Source of the DNA: an uncultured Gammaproteobacteria bacterium
GTDB lineage: Bacteria > Pseudomonadota > Gammaproteobacteria > JABCZS01
Direction of reading: 5' to 3'
NCBI GenBank assembly: GCA_963848305.1
Contig: CAWKDC010000001.1
Location: 1,504,001 to 1,568,000 of the forward strand
DNA: 64,000 bases
Under the pieces are notes generated by a model that made no database searches, was not told the origin of the DNA, and saw only the letters and a program-made list of their open reading frames with translations. A program made the position numbers and the translations under genes. The first letter of the stretch is position 1. Every line of letters begins with the position of its first letter. This document shows positions 43,150 through 54,616 of the stretch, piece by piece.

Positions 43150-43234
43150 GCCGATGTGGTGAAATTGGCAGACACGCCATCTTGAGGGGGTGGTAGCGCA
43201 AGCTGTGCCGGTTCGAGTCCGGCCATCGGCACCA
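43150..43234 (+). tRNA. tRNA-Leu (GAG)
   Basis: GCCGATGTGGTGAAATTGGCAGACACGCCATCTTGAGGGGGTGG...GGTTCGAGTCCGGCCATCGGCACCA; long variable arm, GAG anticodon. Confidence 0.95.
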
Positions 43235-43257
43235 TTTTTTGTATGTGGGGTAGTCAT

Positions 43258-44586
43258 ATGTCTTTATTCAAAAAAATCATGATCGCTTTTCTCCTGTGTT
43301 CACTTCATGGCTTGGTCTACGCACAAGCGAACATCCCGATCGCATCTTGCAATGATTTGAAATCCATCAGCGCTAATATGAGCGGTTATTACTACCTCAC
43401 ACAGGATGTTTACTGTGGCACGGTTCACCCGATTGATGGCACTTTCACGGGCACATTGGATGGGCAAGGGTTTACCATTTTCAATCTGAATATTGTGAAT
43501 CAAGATGGTCGTAAAAGCGAAAACACCGGGATTTTTAGAACAATAGGGCAAAATGCACAAGTCACCAATATCCGCTTTTTCAATACCGTGTTGACTGCGC
43601 ACCGAGATACGAATCGTGGGGTCATTGCGGGTGTGGCAACGGGAAATGTTAACGTCACGGACGTGGTTTTCGAGAAACTTCAAATATTGCACCACGATGT
43701 GGCTCCGGATAAGAAGAAGGATTTAGGCGGGACAGGCAGCGTGGTGGGTCTTGCCACAGAAGGTACGATTGTGCTCAGACGCGTCATGGTGACAGGCCCA
43801 GCAGATGGCGTTTTGATCTCTCAAAACGCATTTGCAGGCGGGTTAGTGGGTATTGCTGAGGGCAATATTATCATTGAGCAGTCAAGTGTTTGGGCGTTGC
43901 AAGCAAAGGGAGGCAAAGAATGTTACAACCCTGCGAATGAATGTGGGTATGGTGGTTTGGTCGGCTTAATCGGTAAATTCCAGCCCCACAATTATGATCA
44001 TCCTGACAACCATGTACCCGCTCTTGAGAATGGCAACAGTGCGATCATTTCCCAATCTTCAGCATCAGGCGCTATTTTTTCAGACAAAAACATAGGTGGA
44101 TTCGTTGGCATGATCAAAGCAGATCGAGGTGTTTTAATTGAAAACAGCTACTCTGATATTGCTATTTTATGCAGAAGATATTATCCAATTGGAAATGAAT
44201 GTGAGGTTCCCAGTAAGTTTGCCGGTGGTGTGGTGGGGAAAGCTGTGGAAAGTGGTCATCAAAAAATGATCGCCCTGGGAAATGTGTATGTCATTGGGAG
44301 GAATGACAATGACATTAAGAATGAACCCTACAGAGAATGGGACACGCATTCTGCTGCGATAGTAGGGATAGATGAGTCCGCTTCAACACGAATTATCAAT
44401 TTGCCCAATACGCAAAGTTACTACGATAGGGATAGCACAAAAATGTCAATATCAGGTGACATGGTATCGAGAGGGTTGACATCTAATCAAATGCAATCAG
44501 GCTATACTGCCGATTTTTCGACCTGGGATCCTTCCGTTTGGACTTTTATCTATGGTTATTATCCTATTTTGAATGAAACACGGTAG
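43258..44586 (+). CDS. Secreted beta-helical protein with GLUG-like repeats
   Basis: Signal peptide; Y.LTQD, FTGTLDGQGFTIFNL, repeated (A/Y/I)GG(L/F/V)VG motifs, terminal W...W.....YYP.L. Confidence 0.75.
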   Translation: MSLFKKIMIAFLLCSLHGLVYAQANIPIASCNDLKSISANMSGYYYLTQDVYCGTVHPIDGTFTGTLDGQGFTIFNLNIVNQDGRKSENTGIFRTIGQNAQVTNIRFFNTVLTAHRDTNRGVIAGVATGNVNVTDVVFEKLQILHHDVAPDKKKDLGGTGSVVGLATEGTIVLRRVMVTGPADGVLISQNAFAGGLVGIAEGNIIIEQSSVWALQAKGGKECYNPANECGYGGLVGLIGKFQPHNYDHPDNHVPALENGNSAIISQSSASGAIFSDKNIGGFVGMIKADRGVLIENSYSDIAILCRRYYPIGNECEVPSKFAGGVVGKAVESGHQKMIALGNVYVIGRNDNDIKNEPYREWDTHSAAIVGIDESASTRIINLPNTQSYYDRDSTKMSISGDMVSRGLTSNQMQSGYTADFSTWDPSVWTFIYGYYPILNETR

Positions 44587-44673: not shown

Positions 44674-47600
44674 ATGGTGAATGTTTCATGGATTCAGAGA
44701 ACATTGGGTGCTGAATCTTGCTACAACATGGGTCAGCGATATGAAACAGGAGCTATTGTTTCGCGTGATATGGCAACTGCTCTAGAATGGTATAGAGCGT
44801 CAGCGGCACTGGGCCATGTGGATGCACAATTATGGCTTGCTGATCATTATAGAAAACAGAAAAACGTCGCTGAAGCAAGACAATATTATCGAAAAGCGAT
44901 AGTAAAAAAACCGAAATTAGCACACTATGGTCTTGCTTTATTGCTCGAAGATGAAGAAAAATATTCTGCTGCTTTAGAGGCTTTTGAACTCGCTGCATCG
45001 CTTGGATGTCATTTGTCTGAAAAAAAACTAATAGACTTTTCTCGTACAGGTGATCACAGGCCAAGCATTACTGATTTTGGGTGAGCTCGAAGAACATAAA
45101 GAGAACTGGGTCAAGGCAGAACAACATTACACAGAAGCAGCAAATTTAATGTCTGCCAAAACGGTACCGCTAGCAAGTATTGAAGCATTAAAACGATTAG
45201 GTGATTTCTATATTAAGGGTCGTGCCACTATCCTCCAAAACAAATCCGTGGCAATCAAATACTATCAACAAGCAGCGATGTTAGGATCGACAGAAGCGTT
45301 AAATGCATTATTGGTGCTGGCAGAGACGGATGGAGAGGCAAACTATGCATTGGCAGAATGTTATTGTGAAGGGTTGTCTGCCGCTAGTGAAAATCTAAAA
45401 AAGGAGAAACTTGAAAAAATACTTGAATACTTAAAGAAGTCTAATGCACAGAGATTTCTGCCAGCCAAAATGAAATTGGCTGAGATTACGAAAGATTATC
45501 TAAAGGACGAAGCACAAGCCTGTCACTATTATATTGAAGCTGCAGAACAAGGTGATAAGCAAGCACTAAGTCTATTGCCAGTGCTTCTTGATAAAATAAC
45601 AAACATGGATTTATACCTTCGGTTTGGCCGTTTGAAGGAAAAACTGAAGGATGTTCAGGGCGCCATGGTTTATTATCATAAAGTCCATAAAATCTACGGC
45701 GGAAATCATGGTCAGCAGCAATTGGCGCGGCTAGCCAATCAAGATGCGAAATATGCATTTGATATTGGAAAACTATTTGTACTGGACGACCCGATCAATG
45801 CGCTGAATTATTATATGATATCTGCGCGTGCTAAAAATGCGGAAGCGTTAGCTGCCGCTGAATCTCTGTCGGAAAAGGGTTCTGCAGAGATCCAATATAA
45901 ATTAGCAATGGAATATTTTTTGCCTGCTAAAAACATGCGAAAAGGCGTGAATTTTTTGTTGCATGCTTGGAATAAAGGGTATCAATTAGCGTTAACTGCG
46001 CTTAAATCAACAACATTTGATGTCGCGATGTATCAGTATCTTGCCGAGCAATTTGAAAAAGGGGGTATTGTTAAGCAGGATGAATCATTGGCATTGTATT
46101 TTTATATTAAATGCGCCGAGTTACAACCTATACCAGGTGGATTTAAAGTCGGTGAGTATTATCTGAACGGACGTGGTACAGCTGTGAATGTATCACTTGG
46201 CTGCGAATATTATTTGAGCGCTGCAAAATTAAATTATCAGCCAGCCATTAATGGATTACAGCAAATGGCTGCAGAACAAAACCCAGAAGCACTCTATGCC
46301 TACGGGAAGTATCTATTTCAGCATTTGAAAAAGGACGATGGATTACTTTATTATGCCGCAGCTGCGCAGTGTCATCATACGCAAGCAAAAGAGTTTATTG
46401 GGAATAATGCTCTGTTCACGCAGGATCAACATATAATACTTGCAACAGCGTTTGATAAAGGGGCTGATAATCCCAAAGTGGCAGCAAATGCTGGGGCAGC
46501 GAAAAGATATTACCGAGCCGCCAGTCACAAAGGCTCCGCGATGGCAAGTTTTCGCCTCGGTGAATATGCTGAAAACGCAACAGAATCATCTGAAGATCCC
46601 GTCGATCACTTTGTCACAGCATTACATCAAAAGCATCCGAAAGCAATAAGCCGATTAGAAATATATGGAAAGGCGAAAAATCAGAAGGCCTGTTTTGCGC
46701 TTTCAAAGGCATATGGGCAAAACAATCGCATTGGTATTCAATGGTTAATTTGCGCGGCAGATTTAGGGCACAGTGATGCCTTAAATCAATTGAAAAGCAT
46801 AAAAATTGATCACACAAGTGCTTTTATCGTTGCTGCGGCACTTGATACAGGCAAGACCCCCTTCTTTGATATCACACAAAATCTGTCGCTCGCATTTTGT
46901 TATTATAAAAGTGTGGTGGAGAATGATCCAAACTATCTAGATGCACTCTACCGAATAGTTCAATTTTATGAGCAAGGCCTAGGTGGTGTTGCTGTTGATC
47001 AAGTGTGTACAGCGAAAACGTACGTGTCAATCGCGCTGAAATCATCAGGTGAGCAAGCCACAGCAGCCTTAGAAAAGGCATCAAAGATCATTGAGGGGAT
47101 AAGCAATTGGGAATTGTGCTATCAATTAGGTATTGCATACGAACATCATCAACAGACGAGCAAGGCCATACATGCATGTAAAAAAGCTGCTGATAATGGA
47201 CATGCACTTGCCTTAAGTCGCCTCAACCGAATGGCGCAGCAAGATACCGAGTCAGCATATACCATCGGACTGTTGTATGAACAACAAGATATCAATCGCG
47301 CACTTGAATTTTATCAACCAGCATTGATGAGTAATCACGAGGCAACCGTTGAGAAAGTGAAAAAACTCGCGATTCATTTGCCTCAGGCCATGTACGTCAT
47401 TGCACGTGATTATTATGTGCAGCATAAACAGATGCAAGCTGCAATTGAATCATTGATGCGAGCTATTGCACATCAACAACCTGACGCGCTGCTCTTTCTA
47501 AAAGGATTGAACTTAACAGCAACACAATGCAATGCAATTGCCGCTACATATGAAAAAGGGGAAGGAATTCATGTGCAAAATTTTGCGTATGCCATAGCCT

Positions 47601-47917
47601 TTCGAGTGAAAGCGTTAAATAAGAGAAATCCAAATGAATTAATGCATCTCGCTGCTTTGTGTGAAAATAATCAGGAATCACCAAAAGAAAATAGGGCGCT
47701 TGCTTGGGAGTATTATTACAAGGCTGCAGAGTTAGGCTCAAATGATGCTTTTCTTGCATTGGAACGACTAGCGCGAACAGAATCAGAAGATAAAATACAA
47801 GCTTTAAATCAGCTGAAAGATAAAAAAAATCGTACTCCTACTGTGACTTTCAGCTGGAATTCGACATTGCCGAAACGAGCCGCTTTGCCTGCTTCATATA
47901 CTTCTAAAAGGAATTAG
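44674..47917 (+). CDS. Large Sel1-like (SLR/TPR) repeat protein, ~1080 aa if a 1-nt frameshift near 45060 is corrected
   Basis: Many Sel1 repeats (ALEWYRASAALGHVDA, AIKYYQQAAMLGSTEA, YYYKAAELGSNDA); ORFs 44674-45084 and 45050-47917 join as TGDH-QALLILG. Confidence 0.85.
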
Positions 47918-47920
47918 GAA

Positions 47921-50900
47921 ATGAGAAATCATACAGATCTGTATTCAGTATTGAATGTTCCAAGCACTGCCACATTTGACGAGATAAAAAAGGCTTATCG
48001 TAAGCTCGCCATGAAACAGCATACAGACAAAGGTGGCACTGATGATGCAATGGCAACGTTAAATAATGCATACGAAGTTTTAAGTGATGCTGCCCGCAAG
48101 AGCGCCTATGATGCGATGCAAGCGAGTGGTGCTGATGCCATTGATCGGATGTTTGAAGCGAAAGGCAAATGGGTGAAATTAGGCAGCACAGGTGAACGCT
48201 TTTCGGAAAGGTATAGGAAACGTTTCATCGAGTTGAAGGCATCATACCAGAATGCGATACCAGTAGCGTTCGATATGAAAAATGTTGTTCCAGTGCATCA
48301 GAGCCAATTGTTTGATATCAGCACGCGAGAAGGAGTAATCAAAGAAGGTGGATTGCTTGAATTTCTCAAGAAACATGCGTTGTCCCACAAAGACGCGATG
48401 CTCCCTTCCGGCGTATGGCGTACGCCTTTAACGCCACAGCATGCGATAGGAGTGCTGATTGATTTTGTCGAAGGTGATTATCGTGGGCTTCAACTGAAAC
48501 AACTGTATGATTATATGATGGCGGAAGCGGAGAACGTTGATCAGAGAGAGAGGCAGCTATATCTCGCGTTAGCGAACATATTTATATTTGCCTACCGAGA
48601 ATCATTGCCGAGCGAACTAGAGAAGTCAACGGCTCCATCAATGACGATGTCTGGACACAAGTCTTTGTGTGCTGTGACAAATTATATTAAAAAGACATCC
48701 AGCTTCAGTATGTCTTACTGTGCCTCATTGTTACAAAATGAATATTTTCGTGATTTTTATCAGTGGATACTCGTGAATGCTGTTTGGAGACAACCTGATC
48801 CAAAATTAATTCAAAACACATTGGCTGAATACAATAATTACGATCATACACGTGAAGAGCTGCAAAAGTTGTTGGACAGGCAAGAATCTTTACCAGAAGA
48901 TGCAGAAATGCGCAGCGGGTTTGAGCAATGGGTCACAACGTATAAATATCTCTATCTTTATGAAAAAAATGCCAAGGAACATCGAGAAAAACCAGTATAC
49001 CTTAAATCAGCAGAGCATCATATCGAATGTGCATATGATATTATGGATTGGTTTCCAGTGTTAGGTGAACGCGTTCCAAGAGAAATTCTCGCAAACCTGT
49101 TGCTTCAAGCAGGTGCTCAAATGCAAGTATCAGGCCAATTATCCACAAACCATCCGGAGAAAATGGCATGTGAAAAATTGAGCTATGAGTTTTATATGAA
49201 TGCGCTTATGTTTGCAAATCGTTCATCCTTAGACGTTGAGTTATATGTCCTCCAACACATTATTTCTAATATCAGTGATTATCGCTTTCAAAATGAATCC
49301 GCTAAAAAAGCGCTGCCAGAATTAGTAAAACTATATTCACATATATCAAATGTTTTTCCGCTCTATGAAGAACCGCAGGCACATATTCAATTATTTTCGA
49401 CCAGTGATAATGGTTTGCAAGGTACGATGCGTCGCCTGCTGTATGTATTGGTTGATGTGGTTCGATTCAATCGATCACATGCGGCAGATGAGGCGAAACC
49501 CTTTGATCATAAATATGTTGATGTCTTGTATTATGCATACGAAGCATGTTTGCGTAGATGGTATGAGTCCAATGAAGCGACTGAAAAAGATATTCGAACA
49601 ACTCTTATGGAAGAATTGTTAGCTGACAGAGGCTGGAAGTTTTCTGATTTGAATAAGCGTTTGCAATCACCTTATATCATGATCGATCGAACACCAGATG
49701 GCTGGCTATCTCCGACACGCACATTGGCATTGCCAACAAAAGAGAAACAAACAGCATTCGCTTCACTCGATGCCATTGAAATCGATGACAATACAGGCAA
49801 CTTTCACTTCGTGATGCGCGATATTACCGGCTGGCAAGATCCACAACAGCGCGTGGTCAGTTTTTCAGATATACAAGAAATATTCTCGCACAATGTCACA
49901 GGGGCACTGCTGAGTCTTGATGAAGTCAATGAATACATGCGATTCCATCCATTTAATAAAATCAGAGTATCTCCAACATCCTTGTTCGAGACGGATTTTA
50001 TCAATACGTTTTTGCTAACCGATTATTTCCTAAAATTCATGACGGTGGGTCATGAGGTCAATGGCCAGTATCCCTACAACATGCGACCAGTCAGAGAGAT
50101 GATCTCGCATTTTCCTACTCATTTAAAATTGATTATTGAACAATTTCAAGACGCTCAGAAGGATGAATCTGCTCATCGTTTTTGGATCGAGGCATGTCCG
50201 GTGAATGCATTTTTGCCTGTTCAGGAGCGTGGCAATGACGAGACAACTCGAATCATGGTTCCTGAAATTCATATGATTGTTAAAAAACATCTTTTACGTC
50301 GAAGCGCTAGCGGTGCTTTAGTGGATGATCAAAATGAGCCTGATGAAGGCTGGCACTTGTATCGCTTTGATAAGCTACCAGGGCAGAATAAACTCTGTGA
50401 GTTAGCAACAGATAAATCCGTGATCGTTTTTACAAAAAAACTTACTGAGGTTTATTTTATTCCTAAAGGCGGGCAATCTGAAAAAATGCATTTACCAAAT
50501 CATATAATGCATCTTTTTGTTAAATTATCAGCAATGACTATTGATGATAGTGGTGCAATTTCAAGGACTGACGAAAATTCAAGTTATCTATATTATGTTG
50601 TCAAAGTATTGTGCGCTGAGTATAAAAAACCAACCCTTTTTTCACCAGAATATGTGTTCGCACAGGAGTTTACACTCCACTATGATGAATTTGCAAACTG
50701 TTTGCCTGAGTTTGCTCGCCTTCGCGAGCTGGCTCGTTTGACAGTGTACGTTCAATTATTAAATCGCGTGAAATCATCAAACGAGCTTCAAAAGACAAAG
50801 CTGGAATCTATCCTTAATGATGTCGAACATTGGAAAAAACGTGAAGCCGTAGTCAAAAAAGCCATTGCAGATATTAAGCAGCAATACGATAATCTTTATA

Positions 50901-52408
50901 ACCAAACGTTTCAAGACATGCAGACTAATATTTCTGAGAAGTTTAGTCACTTTAATCGAGACTTTTCTCGGACAGCCTTAGAACGAAAATATCTTGCTAT
51001 CCTTAATGGTATTAAACAGGACATTGATCCGCTTGATTTTAATGAAAGATCCCGGCAAGTCGTCGATGCGGTTGACAAGATGTACAATGAAAATCGAAGC
51101 CGTATTATCAATCAGCATGGCATGGCTCAATGGAATTACAATGCGACTAACATTCGAAACCAGTGCGATGCAGAAAAAGGCAAAATCGCACGCGAGTTAA
51201 CAAGAATGAAACGCGAATCTGTTCATGCAAGTCTGTTGAGTCAATATGATTCGATCTTGGCTTTGCCGAGAAGCACGATCTCGACATATGTCACTGAATT
51301 TATGAATGGAAACCATCAGAATCTGCTGCGATCTCTAGTGAATGAAAGTTACAATAAATCATTGACAGCATTGGTCAGCTCTTTCGGTTCCTTTGATATC
51401 GGGCACTCCACTGTTGAAAATGCATTAACTTCCCCATCCGCTAGAAATAGCATTACTAAAATCATTGTTGATAAAAATACAGCAGCGCTGCGAACACAAT
51501 GTGATAGCGAAATTGCCCGTGCAAACAATATTATCTCTGAAGAGAAAGCTGAGATACGAGCAGCGATCGCTAAATTTCAGCGCGTGATCAATAAATTGGG
51601 TGAGCTAGGGATCGGTCGCAAAGACGCTTTGGATCAGGCCGACATTTCTCCCGAGAAATGCACTTGGGTGCCTGCCAGTGTTGATCGACAAGAAAACCGC
51701 ACTCGTCTTGTATATGGTGGAGTTCATGTGCAGCCCAGTATTCATGTGGTGACAAGTATGAACTCGCAAACACAATCAGCGGTAAATCAGTGTTATTCCC
51801 CGTCGAATCATTTTCGTTATTCGTCACAAGATTTACCTCGTGCGACTCAGAATGGATGCAGTAATAATTTCCAACAACGCATGGCCTCTCAGCCGTCTGC
51901 TCCTCCGCCACCCCCATCTTCCGGTGGCGGATATGGTGGTGGTTCATCGAGTGGTGGAGGGCGACGTCCGCCTTCACCGCCGCCACCAGGGAATGGCTAC
52001 TCGAATAGTATGAGTGATGCGTTGCGTCATAAAGTTGTCCTCAGTTTCCAAGAGGCGGGTATGATGCGACAGAGCGAGAAATTGACGCAGCAGGCTATAA
52101 ACGGAAGCGAAAGAATTATTGCTGGAAGAGATCTCAATAATCCCCATCTTGTCAATACATTAACTGCAGGTGGGAAAAATATCAATGATTGGGGTAAGTA
52201 TACTACACCTTCAGTCACACTTTCGACTGGTCAAAGTGTTCAGATACATTACTATAAGCATGAACCTACCGGTAAAATTTCAAATATTGAGTATAAAGTT
52301 AAAGGTGTGGTAGATTATGCAGGCAAACCCAGTGCTGCTGAACGCACGGGCGCTGATCCTTACCGAGGCACTGGAAAGGCAAAATATGCATCCGAACTTT
52401 TTAAATAG
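47921..52408 (+). CDS. 1495-aa protein: N-terminal J-domain (HTD), unknown core, Pro/Gly linker, putative C-terminal toxin domain
   Basis: DLYSVLNV....[20 protein letters not shown]...LNNAYEVLSD...KSAYD; linker PSAPPPPPSSGGGYGGGSSSGGGRRPPSPPPPG; CT motifs DWGKYTT, IHYYKHEPTG, EYKVK. Confidence 0.8.
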   Translation: MRNHTDLYSVLNVPSTATFDEIKKAYRKLAMKQHTDKGGTDDAMATLNNAYEVLSDAARKSAYDAMQASGADAIDRMFEAKGKWVKLGSTGERFSERYRKRFIELKASYQNAIPVAFDMKNVVPVHQSQLFDISTREGVIKEGGLLEFLKKHALSHKDAMLPSGVWRTPLTPQHAIGVLIDFVEGDYRGLQLKQLYDYMMAEAENVDQRERQLYLALANIFIFAYRESLPSELEKSTAPSMTMSGHKSLCAVTNYIKKTSSFSMSYCASLLQNEYFRDFYQWILVNAVWRQPDPKLIQNTLAEYNNYDHTREELQKLLDRQESLPEDAEMRSGFEQWVTTYKYLYLYEKNAKEHREKPVYLKSAEHHIECAYDIMDWFPVLGERVPREILANLLLQAGAQMQVSGQLSTNHPEKMACEKLSYEFYMNALMFANRSSLDVELYVLQHIISNISDYRFQNESAKKALPELVKLYSHISNVFPLYEEPQAHIQLFSTSDNGLQGTMRRLLYVLVDVVRFNRSHAADEAKPFDHKYVDVLYYAYEACLRRWYESNEATEKDIRTTLMEELLADRGWKFSDLNKRLQSPYIMIDRTPDGWLSPTRTLALPTKEKQTAFASLDAIEIDDNTGNFHFVMRDITGWQDPQQRVVSFSDIQEIFSHNVTGALLSLDEVNEYMRFHPFNKIRVSPTSLFETDFINTFLLTDYFLKFMTVGHEVNGQYPYNMRPVREMISHFPTHLKLIIEQFQDAQKDESAHRFWIEACPVNAFLPVQERGNDETTRIMVPEIHMIVKKHLLRRSASGALVDDQNEPDEGWHLYRFDKLPGQNKLCELATDKSVIVFTKKLTEVYFIPKGGQSEKMHLPNHIMHLFVKLSAMTIDDSGAISRTDENSSYLYYVVKVLCAEYKKPTLFSPEYVFAQEFTLHYDEFANCLPEFARLRELARLTVYVQLLNRVKSSNELQKTKLESILNDVEHWKKREAVVKKAIADIKQQYDNLYNQTFQDMQTNISEKFSHFNRDFSRTALERKYLAILNGIKQDIDPLDFNERSRQVVDAVDKMYNENRSRIINQHGMAQWNYNATNIRNQCDAEKGKIARELTRMKRESVHASLLSQYDSILALPRSTISTYVTEFMNGNHQNLLRSLVNESYNKSLTALVSSFGSFDIGHSTVENALTSPSARNSITKIIVDKNTAALRTQCDSEIARANNIISEEKAEIRAAIAKFQRVINKLGELGIGRKDALDQADISPEKCTWVPASVDRQENRTRLVYGGVHVQPSIHVVTSMNSQTQSAVNQCYSPSNHFRYSSQDLPRATQNGCSNNFQQRMASQPSAPPPPPSSGGGYGGGSSSGGGRRPPSPPPPGNGYSNSMSDALRHKVVLSFQEAGMMRQSEKLTQQAINGSERIIAGRDLNNPHLVNTLTAGGKNINDWGKYTTPSVTLSTGQSVQIHYYKHEPTGKISNIEYKVKGVVDYAGKPSAAERTGADPYRGTGKAKYASELFK

Positions 52409-52862
52409 ATAGGAACATTATGAAACTGATATGCAATCTAAAGGATAGTACATGGGTAAACTATGGTGATGCATATTATCCATTGGCAATTAGTTTTAGT
52501 TTGAAAAGTGGTATTGAAGTGTATATACAATCTGAGGATAATAATACCCCAATTTGGAAAAAAATAACTGGTTTTGAAGTCATTGATCAAATCATTCCCA
52601 GCTCATGGGTTAGGAAAGTAGATGCAGATCCCGCATATGGGATAATCACATTTCTCCCGGCAAAATGGGTCTATCGTGGTTTTTTTGAAGAATTATATGA
52701 TGATGTCCCCTCTGCTGTAGCATTATTCAATGAAGAAGCGATAAAAATATATAAGGAATTGAAAGCGCCAGGGTATGAACAGGATTAATTTCGTTATTGG
52801 AATTGCAAAAGTAATTAGATTGATATGAATGTAGGGGCGCATATTTGTGCCTGTCCGCGCCA
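52303..52862 (+). repeat. 560-bp cassette copy 1 (toxin 3' tip + immunity-like gene + downstream REP)
   Basis: Aligns without gaps to 53403-53962; near-identical first 111 bp and last ~145 bp. Confidence 0.9.
52420..52788 (+). CDS. Putative cognate immunity protein
   Basis: 122 aa, starts 11 nt after the toxin-like stop with AGGA RBS; FEVID..IPS.W and GFFE.L.D motifs. Confidence 0.7.
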   Translation: MKLICNLKDSTWVNYGDAYYPLAISFSLKSGIEVYIQSEDNNTPIWKKITGFEVIDQIIPSSWVRKVDADPAYGIITFLPAKWVYRGFFEELYDDVPSAVALFNEEAIKIYKELKAPGYEQD

Positions 52863-52934
52863 TGGTGCGGCAATAAATCGATTTCGGATCGCGTTGTGGA
52901 TCAAAAGAGAGAAAGTCGACAATGAGCACGGAAA

Positions 52935-53294
52935 ATGAAAAGAGAAGATTTAATTCAAATACTTGAAGGCGATATAGATCATATCGATCATGTGGATATG
53001 TATGATGAGAACATGTGTTCCCCGGAAGTGGAAGTGCATCCAAAACATGTAAAAAGGATGTTGCTCGATTTCATCAGTGATAAACTTAGCGCGCAACAAT
53101 TACAAAAATGGGCAGAGTTCATATCATATCGTTGTGACTATTCGTCGATCAATTTCATGGAACTCGAAGATGAAGATTATTATGAAGTCATGTGGGATGT
53201 GATCAATTGCTTGTCAACCCCCGAACTTGACGGTGAAATCACCAAAGAAAGTGTGAAGGGATACTTGTTGGAACTGCAGAAGTATACGGAGTAA
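52935..53294 (+). CDS. Putative orphan immunity protein, unrelated to its neighbours
   Basis: 119 aa, very acidic, QLQKWAEFI...LSTPELDG; sits between the two cassettes. Confidence 0.6.
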   Translation: MKREDLIQILEGDIDHIDHVDMYDENMCSPEVEVHPKHVKRMLLDFISDKLSAQQLQKWAEFISYRCDYSSINFMELEDEDYYEVMWDVINCLSTPELDGEITKESVKGYLLELQKYTE

Positions 53295-53402
53295 GGCCTC
53301 AGCCTCGTCAGAGGCAGCAGATGTGGAGCCCCGCATGTAGCGCGCCTGATAGGGCGTGCAAATGTGGGGTTCCCATGAGGCCGCTGTAGGCGGCGGAATG
53401 GG

Positions 53403-53962
53403 AGGTGTGGTAGATTATGCAGGCAAACCCAGTGCTGCTGAACGCACGGGCGCTGATCCTTACCGGGGTACTGGAAAAGCGAAATATGCATCCGAACTTT
53501 TTAAATAGATAGGTACGATATGAAGCTCATTTGTAAAATAAAGGACAATCTATGGGTTAATTATGAAGAGGAATATTATCCTCTTGCAATTAGCTTTTCG
53601 TTAAAAAGAGGGATCGATATATGCATACAAGTTGGCGAAGATGGAATGCCGGGTTGGAGTAGTCTAGTTGGTTTTGAAGTTATCGATCAGACCATTCCTA
53701 GCTGTTGGGTGAGAGATGTACACGAAGATCCAACGTATGGAATCATCACGTATCTGCCTGCGAAATGGGCCTACCATGGATTTTTTGAGGACTTAAGCAA
53801 TGATATACCTGCTGCCGTAGCATTATTCAATGAAGAAGCGATAAAAATATATAAGGAATTGAAAGCGCCAGGGTATGAACAGGATTAGTTTCGTTATTGG
53901 AATTGCAAAAGTAATTAGATTGATATGAATGTAGGGGTGCATATTTGCGCCTGTCTGCGCCA
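53403..53962 (+). repeat. 560-bp cassette copy 2
   Basis: Exactly 1100 bp downstream of copy 1; starts with the last 34 codons of the toxin-like gene. Confidence 0.9.
53520..53888 (+). CDS. Paralogous putative immunity protein
   Basis: 122 aa, 86/122 identical to 52420-52788 by manual alignment; last 24 aa identical. Confidence 0.7.
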   Translation: MKLICKIKDNLWVNYEEEYYPLAISFSLKRGIDICIQVGEDGMPGWSSLVGFEVIDQTIPSCWVRDVHEDPTYGIITYLPAKWAYHGFFEDLSNDIPAAVALFNEEAIKIYKELKAPGYEQD

Positions 53963-54031: not shown

Positions 54032-54616
54032 TTATTGTTTCTTGTAGCAATAACCTATCTTTTTACCATTGCCGGACCAGCACCCAGCATTCAAATCCAT
54101 CAGAGCGCATAGACCAGCTGCGTTGATGGTGTATTTTGAGTTAGTAATGCCGTTGTTGCACTGGAAAGTTTGATCATAACTAAAGTTGTTGCCATCATCA
54201 GAAGCATTACATTCTGCTATACCCCCACCATTAGGGCAATGGACGATTTCTGACGTAGTCGCCGTAACATTGGGATCACTGCTTTTGTCACAAAGAACAT
54301 TCTGTCCTCCATGTTTTATGCAGTCTAAATAATTGTCGCTGTTGACGCCACAGATTGTGCTTTGACCCCCATTGGGGTTAGATAATTGTACGGCATAATT
54401 ACATGTTGAATCACCCTGAGGGACCTCGGCGCATTGAGAGAGTGGCAGTTTGGCCGAGCAGTTAGGTGCGGTATCGCTGAGGGCAGGGAATGTGATGAGA
54501 GACAGCAAGAGAGGGGTTGCACAGCGAAGTGTCACTGATAAAATTGATGTATTGATGAAACTTTTCCTTAAGATGGATTGATACGAATAGTTTAGATGTT
54601 TAAGCATGAAAGTCAA
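54032..54616 (-). CDS. Small secreted cysteine-rich protein (start uncertain)
   Basis: Signal-like PLLLSLITFPALS-D, then 12 Cys in ~147 residues. Confidence 0.65.
   Translation of the reverse strand: MTFMLKHLNYSYQSILRKSFINTSILSVTLRCATPLLLSLITFPALSDTAPNCSAKLPLSQCAEVPQGDSTCNYAVQLSNPNGGQSTICGVNSDNYLDCIKHGGQNVLCDKSSDPNVTATTSEIVHCPNGGGIAECNASDDGNNFSYDQTFQCNNGITNSKYTINAAGLCALMDLNAGCWSGNGKKIGYCYKKQ

Follow-up and report, generated by a model that had tools for sequence, protein, structure and literature searches.

A predicted polymorphic toxin–immunity system led by a J domain, beside a tRNA-Leu gene of an uncultured soil or wetland bacterium

The stretch of DNA analysed here (the window; 64,000 nucleotides (nt), positions 1,504,001 to 1,568,000 of contig CAWKDC010000001.1) comes from an uncultured soil or wetland bacterium with a Dot/Icm-type (type IVB) secretion system. 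Very probably it contains a polymorphic toxin–immunity system, carried on an island of ~10.8 kb beside a tRNA-Leu gene, and comparison of the protein with its relatives indicates a system of a new architectural type. A sequence-only reading of the same DNA had proposed a polymorphic toxin with a previously unlisted N-terminal module. Swapped C-termini among the homologues, conserved neighbouring genes, orphan cassettes and a complex model of toxin and immunity protein all agree with that proposal. A direct repeat of the length found in this locus, together with an open frame of 1495 amino acids (aa), lies far beyond what chance can give.

The carrier and the exchange of its C-termini

The central gene of the locus encodes a protein of 1495 aa. 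The sequence-only reading divided this open reading frame (ORF) into an N-terminal J domain, a core, a boundary, a linker and a C-terminal module, and each part was recovered where it had been placed. The features of the gene are as follows; TPR stands for tetratricopeptide repeat and pLDDT for the predicted local distance difference test.

47921..52408, plus strand: gene of the predicted 1495-aa polymorphic toxin, with J domain, core, linker, C-terminal toxin and tail
47936..48112, plus strand: J domain, aa 6-64, with HTD at aa 34-36 in place of HPD
48203..49675, plus strand: helical (TPR-like) part of the core, aa ~95-585, from the AlphaFold2 model
49733..50620, plus strand: most conserved alpha/beta domain of the core, aa ~605-900, from AlphaFold2 secondary structure
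50645..51604, plus strand: long-helix (coiled-coil-like) part of the core, aa ~909-1228, from the AlphaFold2 model
51659..51736, plus strand: boundary motif CxWVPAS...VYGGV, aa 1247-1272, a beta hairpin; the sequences of homologues differ beyond it
51737..52003, plus strand: low-complexity Pro/Gly/Ser linker of 89 aa, 49% Pro/Gly/Ser
52007..52306, plus strand: predicted C-terminal toxin domain, aa ~1363-1462, basic, alpha+beta
52307..52405, plus strand: disordered 33-aa tail, pLDDT ~39, the portion that is repeated before the second immunity gene

Alignments of the homologues are collinear as far as VYGGV and unrelated past it. A genome scan gave 46 genomic loci of the family, and 23 complete toxins fall into 12 C-terminal clusters. 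Among 27 regions behind the motif there are 8 AHH, 1 Ntox17 and 1 Ntox8 domains, and 17, the window's included, have no Pfam family. The toxins of loci L045 and L048 have cores that are 79% identical and tips without detectable similarity, and the tip type of the window is found on cores only ~28-30% identical to the window core. Similar cores bear unrelated tips and one tip type is shared by distant cores, a pattern of cassette displacement. The expectation that homologues keep the J domain and core and swap their C-termini was borne out; the opposite outcome, one and the same C-terminus without small genes downstream, was not found.

The family is large. A word-based search of a database clustered at 90% returned 24 relatives, with DnaJ in 21 of the 24, AHH in addition in 5 and Ntox8 in 1, and an exhaustive search returned 452 representative clusters at E<=1e-3, with 348 left at 1e-10 and 111 at 1e-30. 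A six-frame search of 400 genomes sampled from the class found the tip type of the window in 5, the window's own genome counted. A word-based search for longer proteins with the C-terminal module of the window found none, and this blank is uninformative because the six-frame genome search did find such proteins. Locus L015, a contig of 2550 nt labelled Bacteroidia, holds a fragment 85% identical to the window toxin core; it probably belongs to a close relative of the window organism and was binned wrongly.

The boundary motif reads CTWVPASVDRQENRTRLVYGGVHVQP in the window protein (aa 1247-1272) and is modelled as a beta hairpin, CTWVPAS...VYGGV. Homologues carry Gly/Ser-rich linkers at the same place as the window linker. 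The C-terminal module begins at ~aa 1362 and has an isoelectric point (pI) of 9.53. Its residues 8-107, in a numbering that counts from aa 1356, are modelled with confidence as a helix and a four-stranded sheet. N52, L59, W69, K71, T74, H88, Y90 and T95 are invariant, and K104 and K106 nearly so. The domain is possibly a RelE/BECR-like RNase; it has the conserved residues K71, H88, K104 and K106, and Foldseek gave no match in PDB at E<=1e-3.

DnaJ (aa 6-64, E 1.6e-15) is the sole Pfam or NCBIfam match of the 1495-aa protein, and the PDB profile matches of its N-terminus are J domains only (best E 2.8e-19). The HPD tripeptide of J domains is required for stimulation of Hsp70. HPD occurs in 81 and HTD in 4 of the 92 long homologues matched by motif search. 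An AlphaFold2 model of aa 66-1265, built from 56 aligned sequences, is confident, with a mean pLDDT of 87.2 and a predicted template modelling score of 0.76. The alpha/beta domain holds most of the invariant residues of the core, with the motifs FSLD, HPF, DYxLK, HRFWIE and KKH, and its conserved stretch extends to ~aa 960 (SPEY...EFxxHYDEF). Comparison of the core with PDB by Foldseek gave no match at E<=1e-3, and the long-helix part gave only weak matches to chemoreceptor-type helices there. A PDB profile search with the alpha/beta domain returned only Dixin (E 0.39). A wide structure search with the 1200-residue core, in which the alpha/beta domain was barely tested, returned generic helical-repeat matches (model residues 94-175 and 240-420), and ESM Atlas gave no usable match to the core (aa 70-1290) or to the alpha/beta domain (aa 600-905). 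Tc toxin A subunits topped the Foldseek rows for the core, with a probability of 0.11, and were rejected as not credible.

The J domain starts directly at the N-terminus, and the protein has no hydrophobic segment. These features and the Pfam and NCBIfam scans upheld the earlier statement that no known trafficking domain or signal peptide is visible, and the scans contained no PAAR, VgrG, Rhs/YD or MIX-type domain. None of the features of CdiA/CdiB systems (a two-partner secretion domain, FHA repeats, VENN or a CdiB neighbour) was seen in Pfam; the neighbours are a Sel1 gene and small ORFs.

Immunity genes, orphan cassettes and the Sel1-repeat partner

Downstream of the toxin gene the sequence-only reading had described a tightly coupled small ORF, an unrelated small acidic ORF, and a repeat of the toxin 3' tip followed by a diverged copy of the first small ORF. 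This layout was found in full, and the four ORFs are interpreted here as predicted immunity genes and a remnant.

52420..52788, plus strand: first immunity gene, 122 aa, pI 4.62, beginning 11 nt past the toxin stop
52935..53294, plus strand: orphan immunity gene of another toxin type, 119 aa, acidic, pI 4.37
53356..53508, plus strand: orphan remnant, a 50-aa ORF whose last 35 codons are a copy of the toxin tail (53403-53508)
53520..53888, plus strand: second, diverged immunity gene, 122 aa, pI 4.5, 70% protein identity to the first

The repeated tip (52303-52408 and 53403-53508) is identical at 102 of 106 nt. The similarity of the two 122-aa genes is highest at their ends: the final ~80 nt are nearly identical (59/60 nt over 52739-52798), and the 49 nt past both stops are identical. 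Their codon differences comprise 36 non-synonymous and 33 synonymous changes.

A model of the C-terminal module with the product of the gene at 52420 supports the binding that had been suggested for this pair. The interaction prediction score from aligned errors (ipSAE) was 0.90 (runs 0.90, 0.88 and 0.90), and the best control reached 0.08. The ipSAE mark is attained by 58 of 80 solved complexes and by 2 of 110 mismatched pairs, counts that apply only approximately because alignments of our own went into the model. The runs share at least 75% of contacts, and the pLDDT of the partner is 90-91. In the model the small acidic protein covers conserved toxin residues, since the interface includes K71, H88, K104 and K106. 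The predicted binding points to the gene at 52420 as the cognate immunity gene.

The arrangement recurs in related loci. Of 11 copies of the window's toxin type found elsewhere, 8 are followed by an ORF of the imm1 family. Of the other three copies one has a weak match and one has none; the last is the third copy of genome G322, in which this toxin type forms an array of three, and has no downstream match in its locus. Among 24 toxins with at least 500 nt downstream (contig-end-cut toxins and duplicates of the same contig being excluded), 20 have a same-strand ORF of 60-300 aa that begins -60 to +150 nt from the stop, so the predicted conservation of small immunity-like genes downstream holds for most of the family. 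These ORFs match Imm11 in 6 of the 20 cases and Imm43 in 1. Both families are paired with Tox-AHH in the tables and text consulted of Zhang et al. 2012 (PMC3482391).

Orphan cassettes of C-terminus and immunity gene, which the earlier reading took as a hallmark, are present in the window (53403-53508 with 53520-53888, and 52935-53294) and in other loci. A single homologue of the ORF at 52935 (47% identical, E 1e-33) was seen in the related loci, where it overlaps the stop of the toxin of L028. The ORF is interpreted as an orphan immunity gene because this homologue adjoins a toxin that bears a different tip. Orphan toxin fragments lie downstream in L018, L020, L022, L052 and L053. In L052 (9995-19123, plus strand) the family member has 3042 aa, and its region behind the motif is a ~500-aa module repeated three times. 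At least five orphan toxin fragments of three types lie downstream of this toxin.

The gene directly upstream of the toxin had been described as a single Sel1-repeat gene of ~1080 aa ending 3 nt before the toxin gene. The repeats and the spacing were confirmed, but in the present assembly the gene is not one ORF.

44674..47917, plus strand: Sel1-repeat partner gene, split into overlapping ORFs 44674-45084 (136 aa) and 45050-47917 (955 aa)

The span of 3244 nt is indivisible by 3, and the two ORFs lie in different frames with a break near 45060. Both match Sel1 in Pfam (E 6e-10 and 1.1e-16). Contigs of four metagenome runs were placed on the window as a check of the break. A contig of the wetland run X3 (312 nt, depth 3.2, covering 44974-45283) has two extra bases behind 45060 and is otherwise identical; this run is independent and the evidence is one contig. 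With a two-letter placeholder at 45060 the gene reads 1081 aa without an internal stop, and its orthologue in the nearest relative, locus L016, is a single ORF of 1090 aa (32% identical). A run of eight A at ~45021-45029 was considered as the site of the break and rejected, since the contigs put the length difference at 45060. Two other genes of the window genome (G000) are also affected: the DotH/IcmK gene (C1:920666-921368) is in two frames, and the TssC gene (C1:1361261-1362158) has an in-frame TGA and a second frame. The breaks in DotH, TssC and Sel1 suggest assembly indel errors or ongoing gene decay. Because DotH and TssC are also split or interrupted, an assembly artefact is as likely as a real lesion at the Sel1 break.

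Conservation of a Sel1 gene upstream was also predicted correctly: a Sel1 match (E<=0.01) was obtained for the gene immediately preceding the toxin in 24 of 32 loci. The upstream partners also include, in counts that overlap with Sel1, TPR families (up to 8/32), ankyrin repeats (4/32) and a J domain of their own (1). In a Tatlockia bin (L039:775-1590, plus strand) a small J-domain protein with HPD replaces the Sel1 protein upstream of the toxin. An N-terminal transmembrane-like segment is present in 1 of the 32 partners (L033). A large cytoplasmic solenoid protein encoded 3 nt before the carrier gene fits an adaptor or co-factor of the carrier, and the Sel1 protein may have this role in the cytoplasm.

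Island, carriers and the site of action

The toxin locus and its immunity array lie between the following features.

43150..43234, plus strand: tRNA-Leu(GAG), found by ARAGORN, left border of the ~10.8-kb low-GC island
43243..44586, plus strand: 447-aa ORF, family unassigned, inside the island directly after tRNA-Leu
54032-54616, minus strand: 194-aa Cys-rich ORF with a hydrophobic N-terminus, right island end, convergent with the immunity array

The GC content of segment 43243-54700 is 0.418, compared with 0.467 across the 1.89-Mb genome. Genome G002, from the same genus, has its triose-phosphate isomerase gene, tRNA-Leu and the adaptor gene of a resistance-nodulation-division (RND) system inside ~1.5 kb, whereas in the window they occupy 12 kb. 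The distance from tRNA-Leu to the RND adaptor gene is ~0.7 kb in G002 and ~11.5 kb in the window. The ~10.8 kb are therefore interpreted as an island beside tRNA-Leu. With the query used, the toxin was not found in two genomes of the same genus, which gave only matches at the level of the J domain. The 447-aa ORF has no Pfam or NCBIfam match and no BLAST match in related loci, and appears from these comparisons to be outside the conserved neighbourhood of family members. The 194-aa ORF likewise has no Pfam or NCBIfam family and no match in related loci. Two soil runs and one wetland metagenome run, each from a different study, contain 0.31-0.45 of the sampled words, and contigs of the soil and wetland runs align to the window stretch at a level of at least 99%. 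The run with the largest share may come from the source sample. Among the sequencing runs that contain window sequence there is no RNA run.

The named carriers of the family are Legionella shakespearei, L. worsleiensis, L. maceachernii, L. lytica, L. fairfieldensis and Tatlockia; other carriers are Coxiellaceae, further Legionellales bins, one Holosporaceae and one Parachlamydiaceae. The central domain occurs in 13 of 149 sampled Legionellaceae genomes, a patchy spread that is typical of an accessory element. DotH/IcmK is present in the window genome and in 29 of 31 carrier genomes. TssC/VipB, the type VI sheath protein, is encoded in the window genome (E 3.9e-98), ~190 kb away and with an in-frame stop, and is found in only 2 of 31 other carrier genomes; a co-occurrence of type VI secretion with the family was rejected on this count. 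In bacteria, type IVB export would be the likeliest single route at somewhat below even chance, because DotH/IcmK accompanies nearly all carriers and TssC only a few.

The alpha/beta domain also matches proteins of 1600-2000 aa, in which it is placed far from the N-terminus. Among 25 such divergent members, a J domain is present in 17 and a FYVE finger in 14. FYVE is a eukaryotic domain that binds phosphatidylinositol 3-phosphate (PI3P) and endosomes. Some of these members end in Ntox17 (2), Ntox8, Ntox46 or GIY-YIG. A second L. fairfieldensis member ends in Ntox17 and is followed by an overlapping ORF of 113 aa. A Legionellaceae member (L072:2929-10329, minus strand; genome G451) has 2467 aa and combines the J domain and the central domain with a eukaryotic-type kinase close to its C-terminal end. 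The genes behind it encode an AAA/DUF4143 protein and a PIN-domain protein, and it has no immunity-like neighbour.

One divergent member is a hypothetical protein of Tupanvirus deep ocean (YP_010781233.1). In a viral model library, the only match to the core at E<=1e-3 was the J domain-containing protein of Tupanvirus soda lake (BFVD A0A6N1NXY0), with E 1.2e-26, a probability of 1.00 and template modelling scores of 0.43/0.54 over 1155 columns. The Tupanvirus protein is 31% identical in the alpha/beta domain (aa 537-801, E 8e-35). The Tupanvirus homologues share the J domain, CxWVPA...VYGGV, a Gly-rich linker and a tip of ~100 aa. A scan of viral contigs with the family alignment gave no locus. 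The Tupanvirus-type proteins P0128 and P0134 end in a His-rich module of ~100 aa, which is conserved between both. In the parts of two reports consulted (PMC5829246, PMC7399046), Tupanvirus is said to degrade host rRNA, and the shutdown is attributed to one strain only. A link of the homologue to rRNA shutdown is doubtful because both strains have the homologue and only one causes shutdown.

Viruses have no secretion system and FYVE is eukaryotic, so the most likely site of action of the carrier is the cytosol of the amoebal host. Action in the amoebal cytosol favours host Hsp70 as the partner of the J domain. The Tupanvirus, FYVE and kinase members point to action in the host cell, and not only to bacterial export.

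A mechanism can be proposed from these data. A conserved carrier, made of the J domain, the helical part, the alpha/beta domain, the long helices and the hairpin, is joined by a flexible linker to an exchangeable basic predicted toxin domain of ~100 aa. The immunity protein would neutralise the toxin in the producer, and the Sel1 protein might assist the carrier as its cytoplasmic adaptor or co-factor. The toxin would leave the cell without a signal peptide, most likely via the type IVB system, and the J domain may engage Hsp70 (host Hsc70 or bacterial DnaK), so that the cargo is unfolded, pulled or refolded. Exchange of cassettes could use the repeated tail and the 3' flank as recombination handles, and the immunity array would point to conflict among bacteria sharing amoebal hosts. 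Such bacteria are the target with slightly better than even probability; the host cell itself is a less favoured and still considerable candidate.

The alternative closest to the polymorphic toxin–immunity system is a host-directed effector family, which we consider rather unlikely. In it the carrier would reach the amoeba by translocation, or be produced inside it by giant viruses, and would hijack host Hsp70 and endosomal membranes, while the C-terminal enzyme hits the host. The small genes would guard the producer before export, and the diversity would come from an arms race with hosts and not with other bacteria. The carriers of the family, intracellular bacteria of protists and Tupanviruses, are those expected from this reading, and so are the FYVE finger in more than half of the divergent members, the Legionellaceae kinase member without an immunity-like neighbour, and partner proteins with Sel1, TPR or ankyrin repeats. 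Zhang et al. 2012 (PMC3482391) proposed, in the sections consulted, that some intracellular bacteria deploy polymorphic-like toxins inside the host cell. However, the orphan immunity gene at 52935 and the diverged one at 53520 would be useless if the toxins never enter bacteria, arrays of orphan cassettes recur in other loci, and AHH with Imm11, Ntox8 and Ntox17 are typical of inter-bacterial systems.

Two further explanations have much lower probability. A cargo of type VI secretion, in which a large toxin with an adaptor-like gene upstream is loaded in the manner of Rhs/PAAR toxins with chaperones, is highly improbable. The sheath gene in the window genome would suit it, and type VI effector loci likewise have an upstream accessory gene and downstream immunity; the rarity of TssC in the other carriers, the distance and in-frame stop of the window copy, and the lack of any PAAR, VgrG, Rhs/YD or MIX-type domain argue against it. 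Barely probable is a purely intracellular toxin–antitoxin or anti-virus defence system, consisting of a large sensor with swappable effectors and small proteins as antitoxins. Swapping of effector domains is generally known from defence systems too, and no export signal was found. Yet cassettes of an orphan toxin tail and an immunity gene are no feature of such systems, members of the family come only from giant viruses and from bacteria that live inside protists, FYVE insertions would be senseless inside a bacterium, and Pfam and NCBIfam contain no match of an NTPase or other sensor-type domain.

Several observations weigh against the polymorphic toxin–immunity system with type IVB export that we prefer. 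The J domain of the window has HTD and not the HPD required of J-domain co-chaperones, and its Hsp70 activity is therefore uncertain. The recognised N-terminal trafficking domain or signal peptide by which polymorphic toxins are defined is lacking, and no secretion signal was identified in the 1495-aa protein. The modelled interface shows no significant excess of differences between the two immunity copies (15 of the 36 differing positions fall among the 44 interface positions, Fisher p = 0.42). No close small ORF follows 4 of the 24 toxins, 8 of the 32 loci have no Sel1 match upstream, and the Sel1 gene of the window is out of frame in the present assembly. The co-occurrence with Dot/Icm is confounded by phylogeny because nearly all carriers are Legionellales, the Holosporaceae and Parachlamydiaceae genomes are carriers without DotH, and the window genome does have a type VI sheath gene. 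A host-directed role is at least as good a fit to the FYVE and kinase relatives as a bacterial target, and the family is also found in viruses, which could not export it by a secretion system. Toxicity, neutralisation, secretion and Hsp70 binding of the locus products are predicted functions only.

A bolder extension of the preferred system is improbable. In it, the J domain, the core and the Sel1 protein would form a self-contained, Hsp70-powered delivery device operating from the amoebal cytosol. The FYVE branch of this device would be anchored to PI3P membranes, and bacterial-type toxins would cross the host membrane into vacuoles or organelles holding competing microbes. If this were true, intracellular bacteria and giant viruses would share a class of weapon that works in the cytoplasm of a third party.

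Relation to known systems

A search of the full-text literature, with subscription papers and supplementary tables outside its scope, found no description of a J-domain-led polymorphic toxin. Some of the family proteins may already appear as predicted effectors in supplementary tables of effector surveys of the genus Legionella. The survey of Zhang et al. 2012 was not among the papers that name polymorphic toxin, DnaJ and Legionella together, and the words 'chaperone' and 'Hsp70' are absent from its first 300,000 characters (PMC3482391).

Known Dot/Icm effectors include proteins with eukaryotic-like domains, such as the Sel1 proteins LpnE and EnhC and the LegK kinases. The present family shares with Dot/Icm effectors the kind of organism and the secretion system, and it has Sel1 or ankyrin partners and one relative with a eukaryotic-type kinase. 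To our knowledge, Dot/Icm effectors have not been reported with cognate immunity genes or orphan cassettes. In the type IV antibacterial effectors of Xanthomonadales the order described here is inverted, since the conserved recognition domain is C-terminal and the variable toxin N-terminal; they use a type IVA system and have neither a J domain nor a Sel1 partner. They combine type IV delivery with adjacent immunity genes and, in the portion of the source consulted, are a precedent for the killing of bacteria (XVIPCD; PMC6759196).

The combination of a J protein, a Sel1-repeat protein and Hsp70 also occurs in the retrotranslocation of cholera toxin, where, according to the part of the account consulted (PMC3596249), ERdj5, Sel1L and BiP move a toxin across a membrane. 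These are proteins of the eukaryotic endoplasmic reticulum, and the likeness is an analogy, with homology limited to the repeats and J domains. The present family would offer a testable case of a toxin carrier using the Hsp70 of its victim or host.

The classical polymorphic toxins (CdiA/CdiB, Rhs/PAAR, MafB and LXG), as set out in the part of Zhang et al. 2012 consulted (PMC3482391), have a shared conserved N-terminus, a sharp boundary and variable C-termini, as the present family does. The toxin pool is held in common (AHH, Ntox8, Ntox17, Ntox46 and GIY-YIG), and an immunity gene directly downstream (Imm11, Imm43) and orphan cassettes are further points of agreement with that source. The family differs from them in having none of their trafficking domains, repeats or signal peptides. 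Instead it has a J domain and a ~1200-aa core without relatives in PDB, together with a large Sel1 partner gene, and it occurs only in giant viruses and in intracellular bacteria of protists. The delivery module is what defines a polymorphic toxin, and every new one has brought to light another route of attack from cell to cell. The module described here starts with a co-chaperone domain and continues with a large core that has no known relatives among solved structures. It is found almost only in bacteria living inside protists, where competition among co-infecting microbes is little understood. The family also supplies at least 17 uncharacterised C-terminal regions, out of 27 scanned, and matching immunity proteins.

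The J domain proteins of Tupanviruses are like the window protein in the structure of the whole core, the J domain, the boundary motif, the linker and a module of ~100 aa. Unlike it, the Tupanvirus protein is viral and longer (1882 aa), and related members of its branch bear the FYVE finger. This shared architecture in Tupanviruses and the FYVE relatives links bacterial toxin cassettes with the biology of giant viruses.

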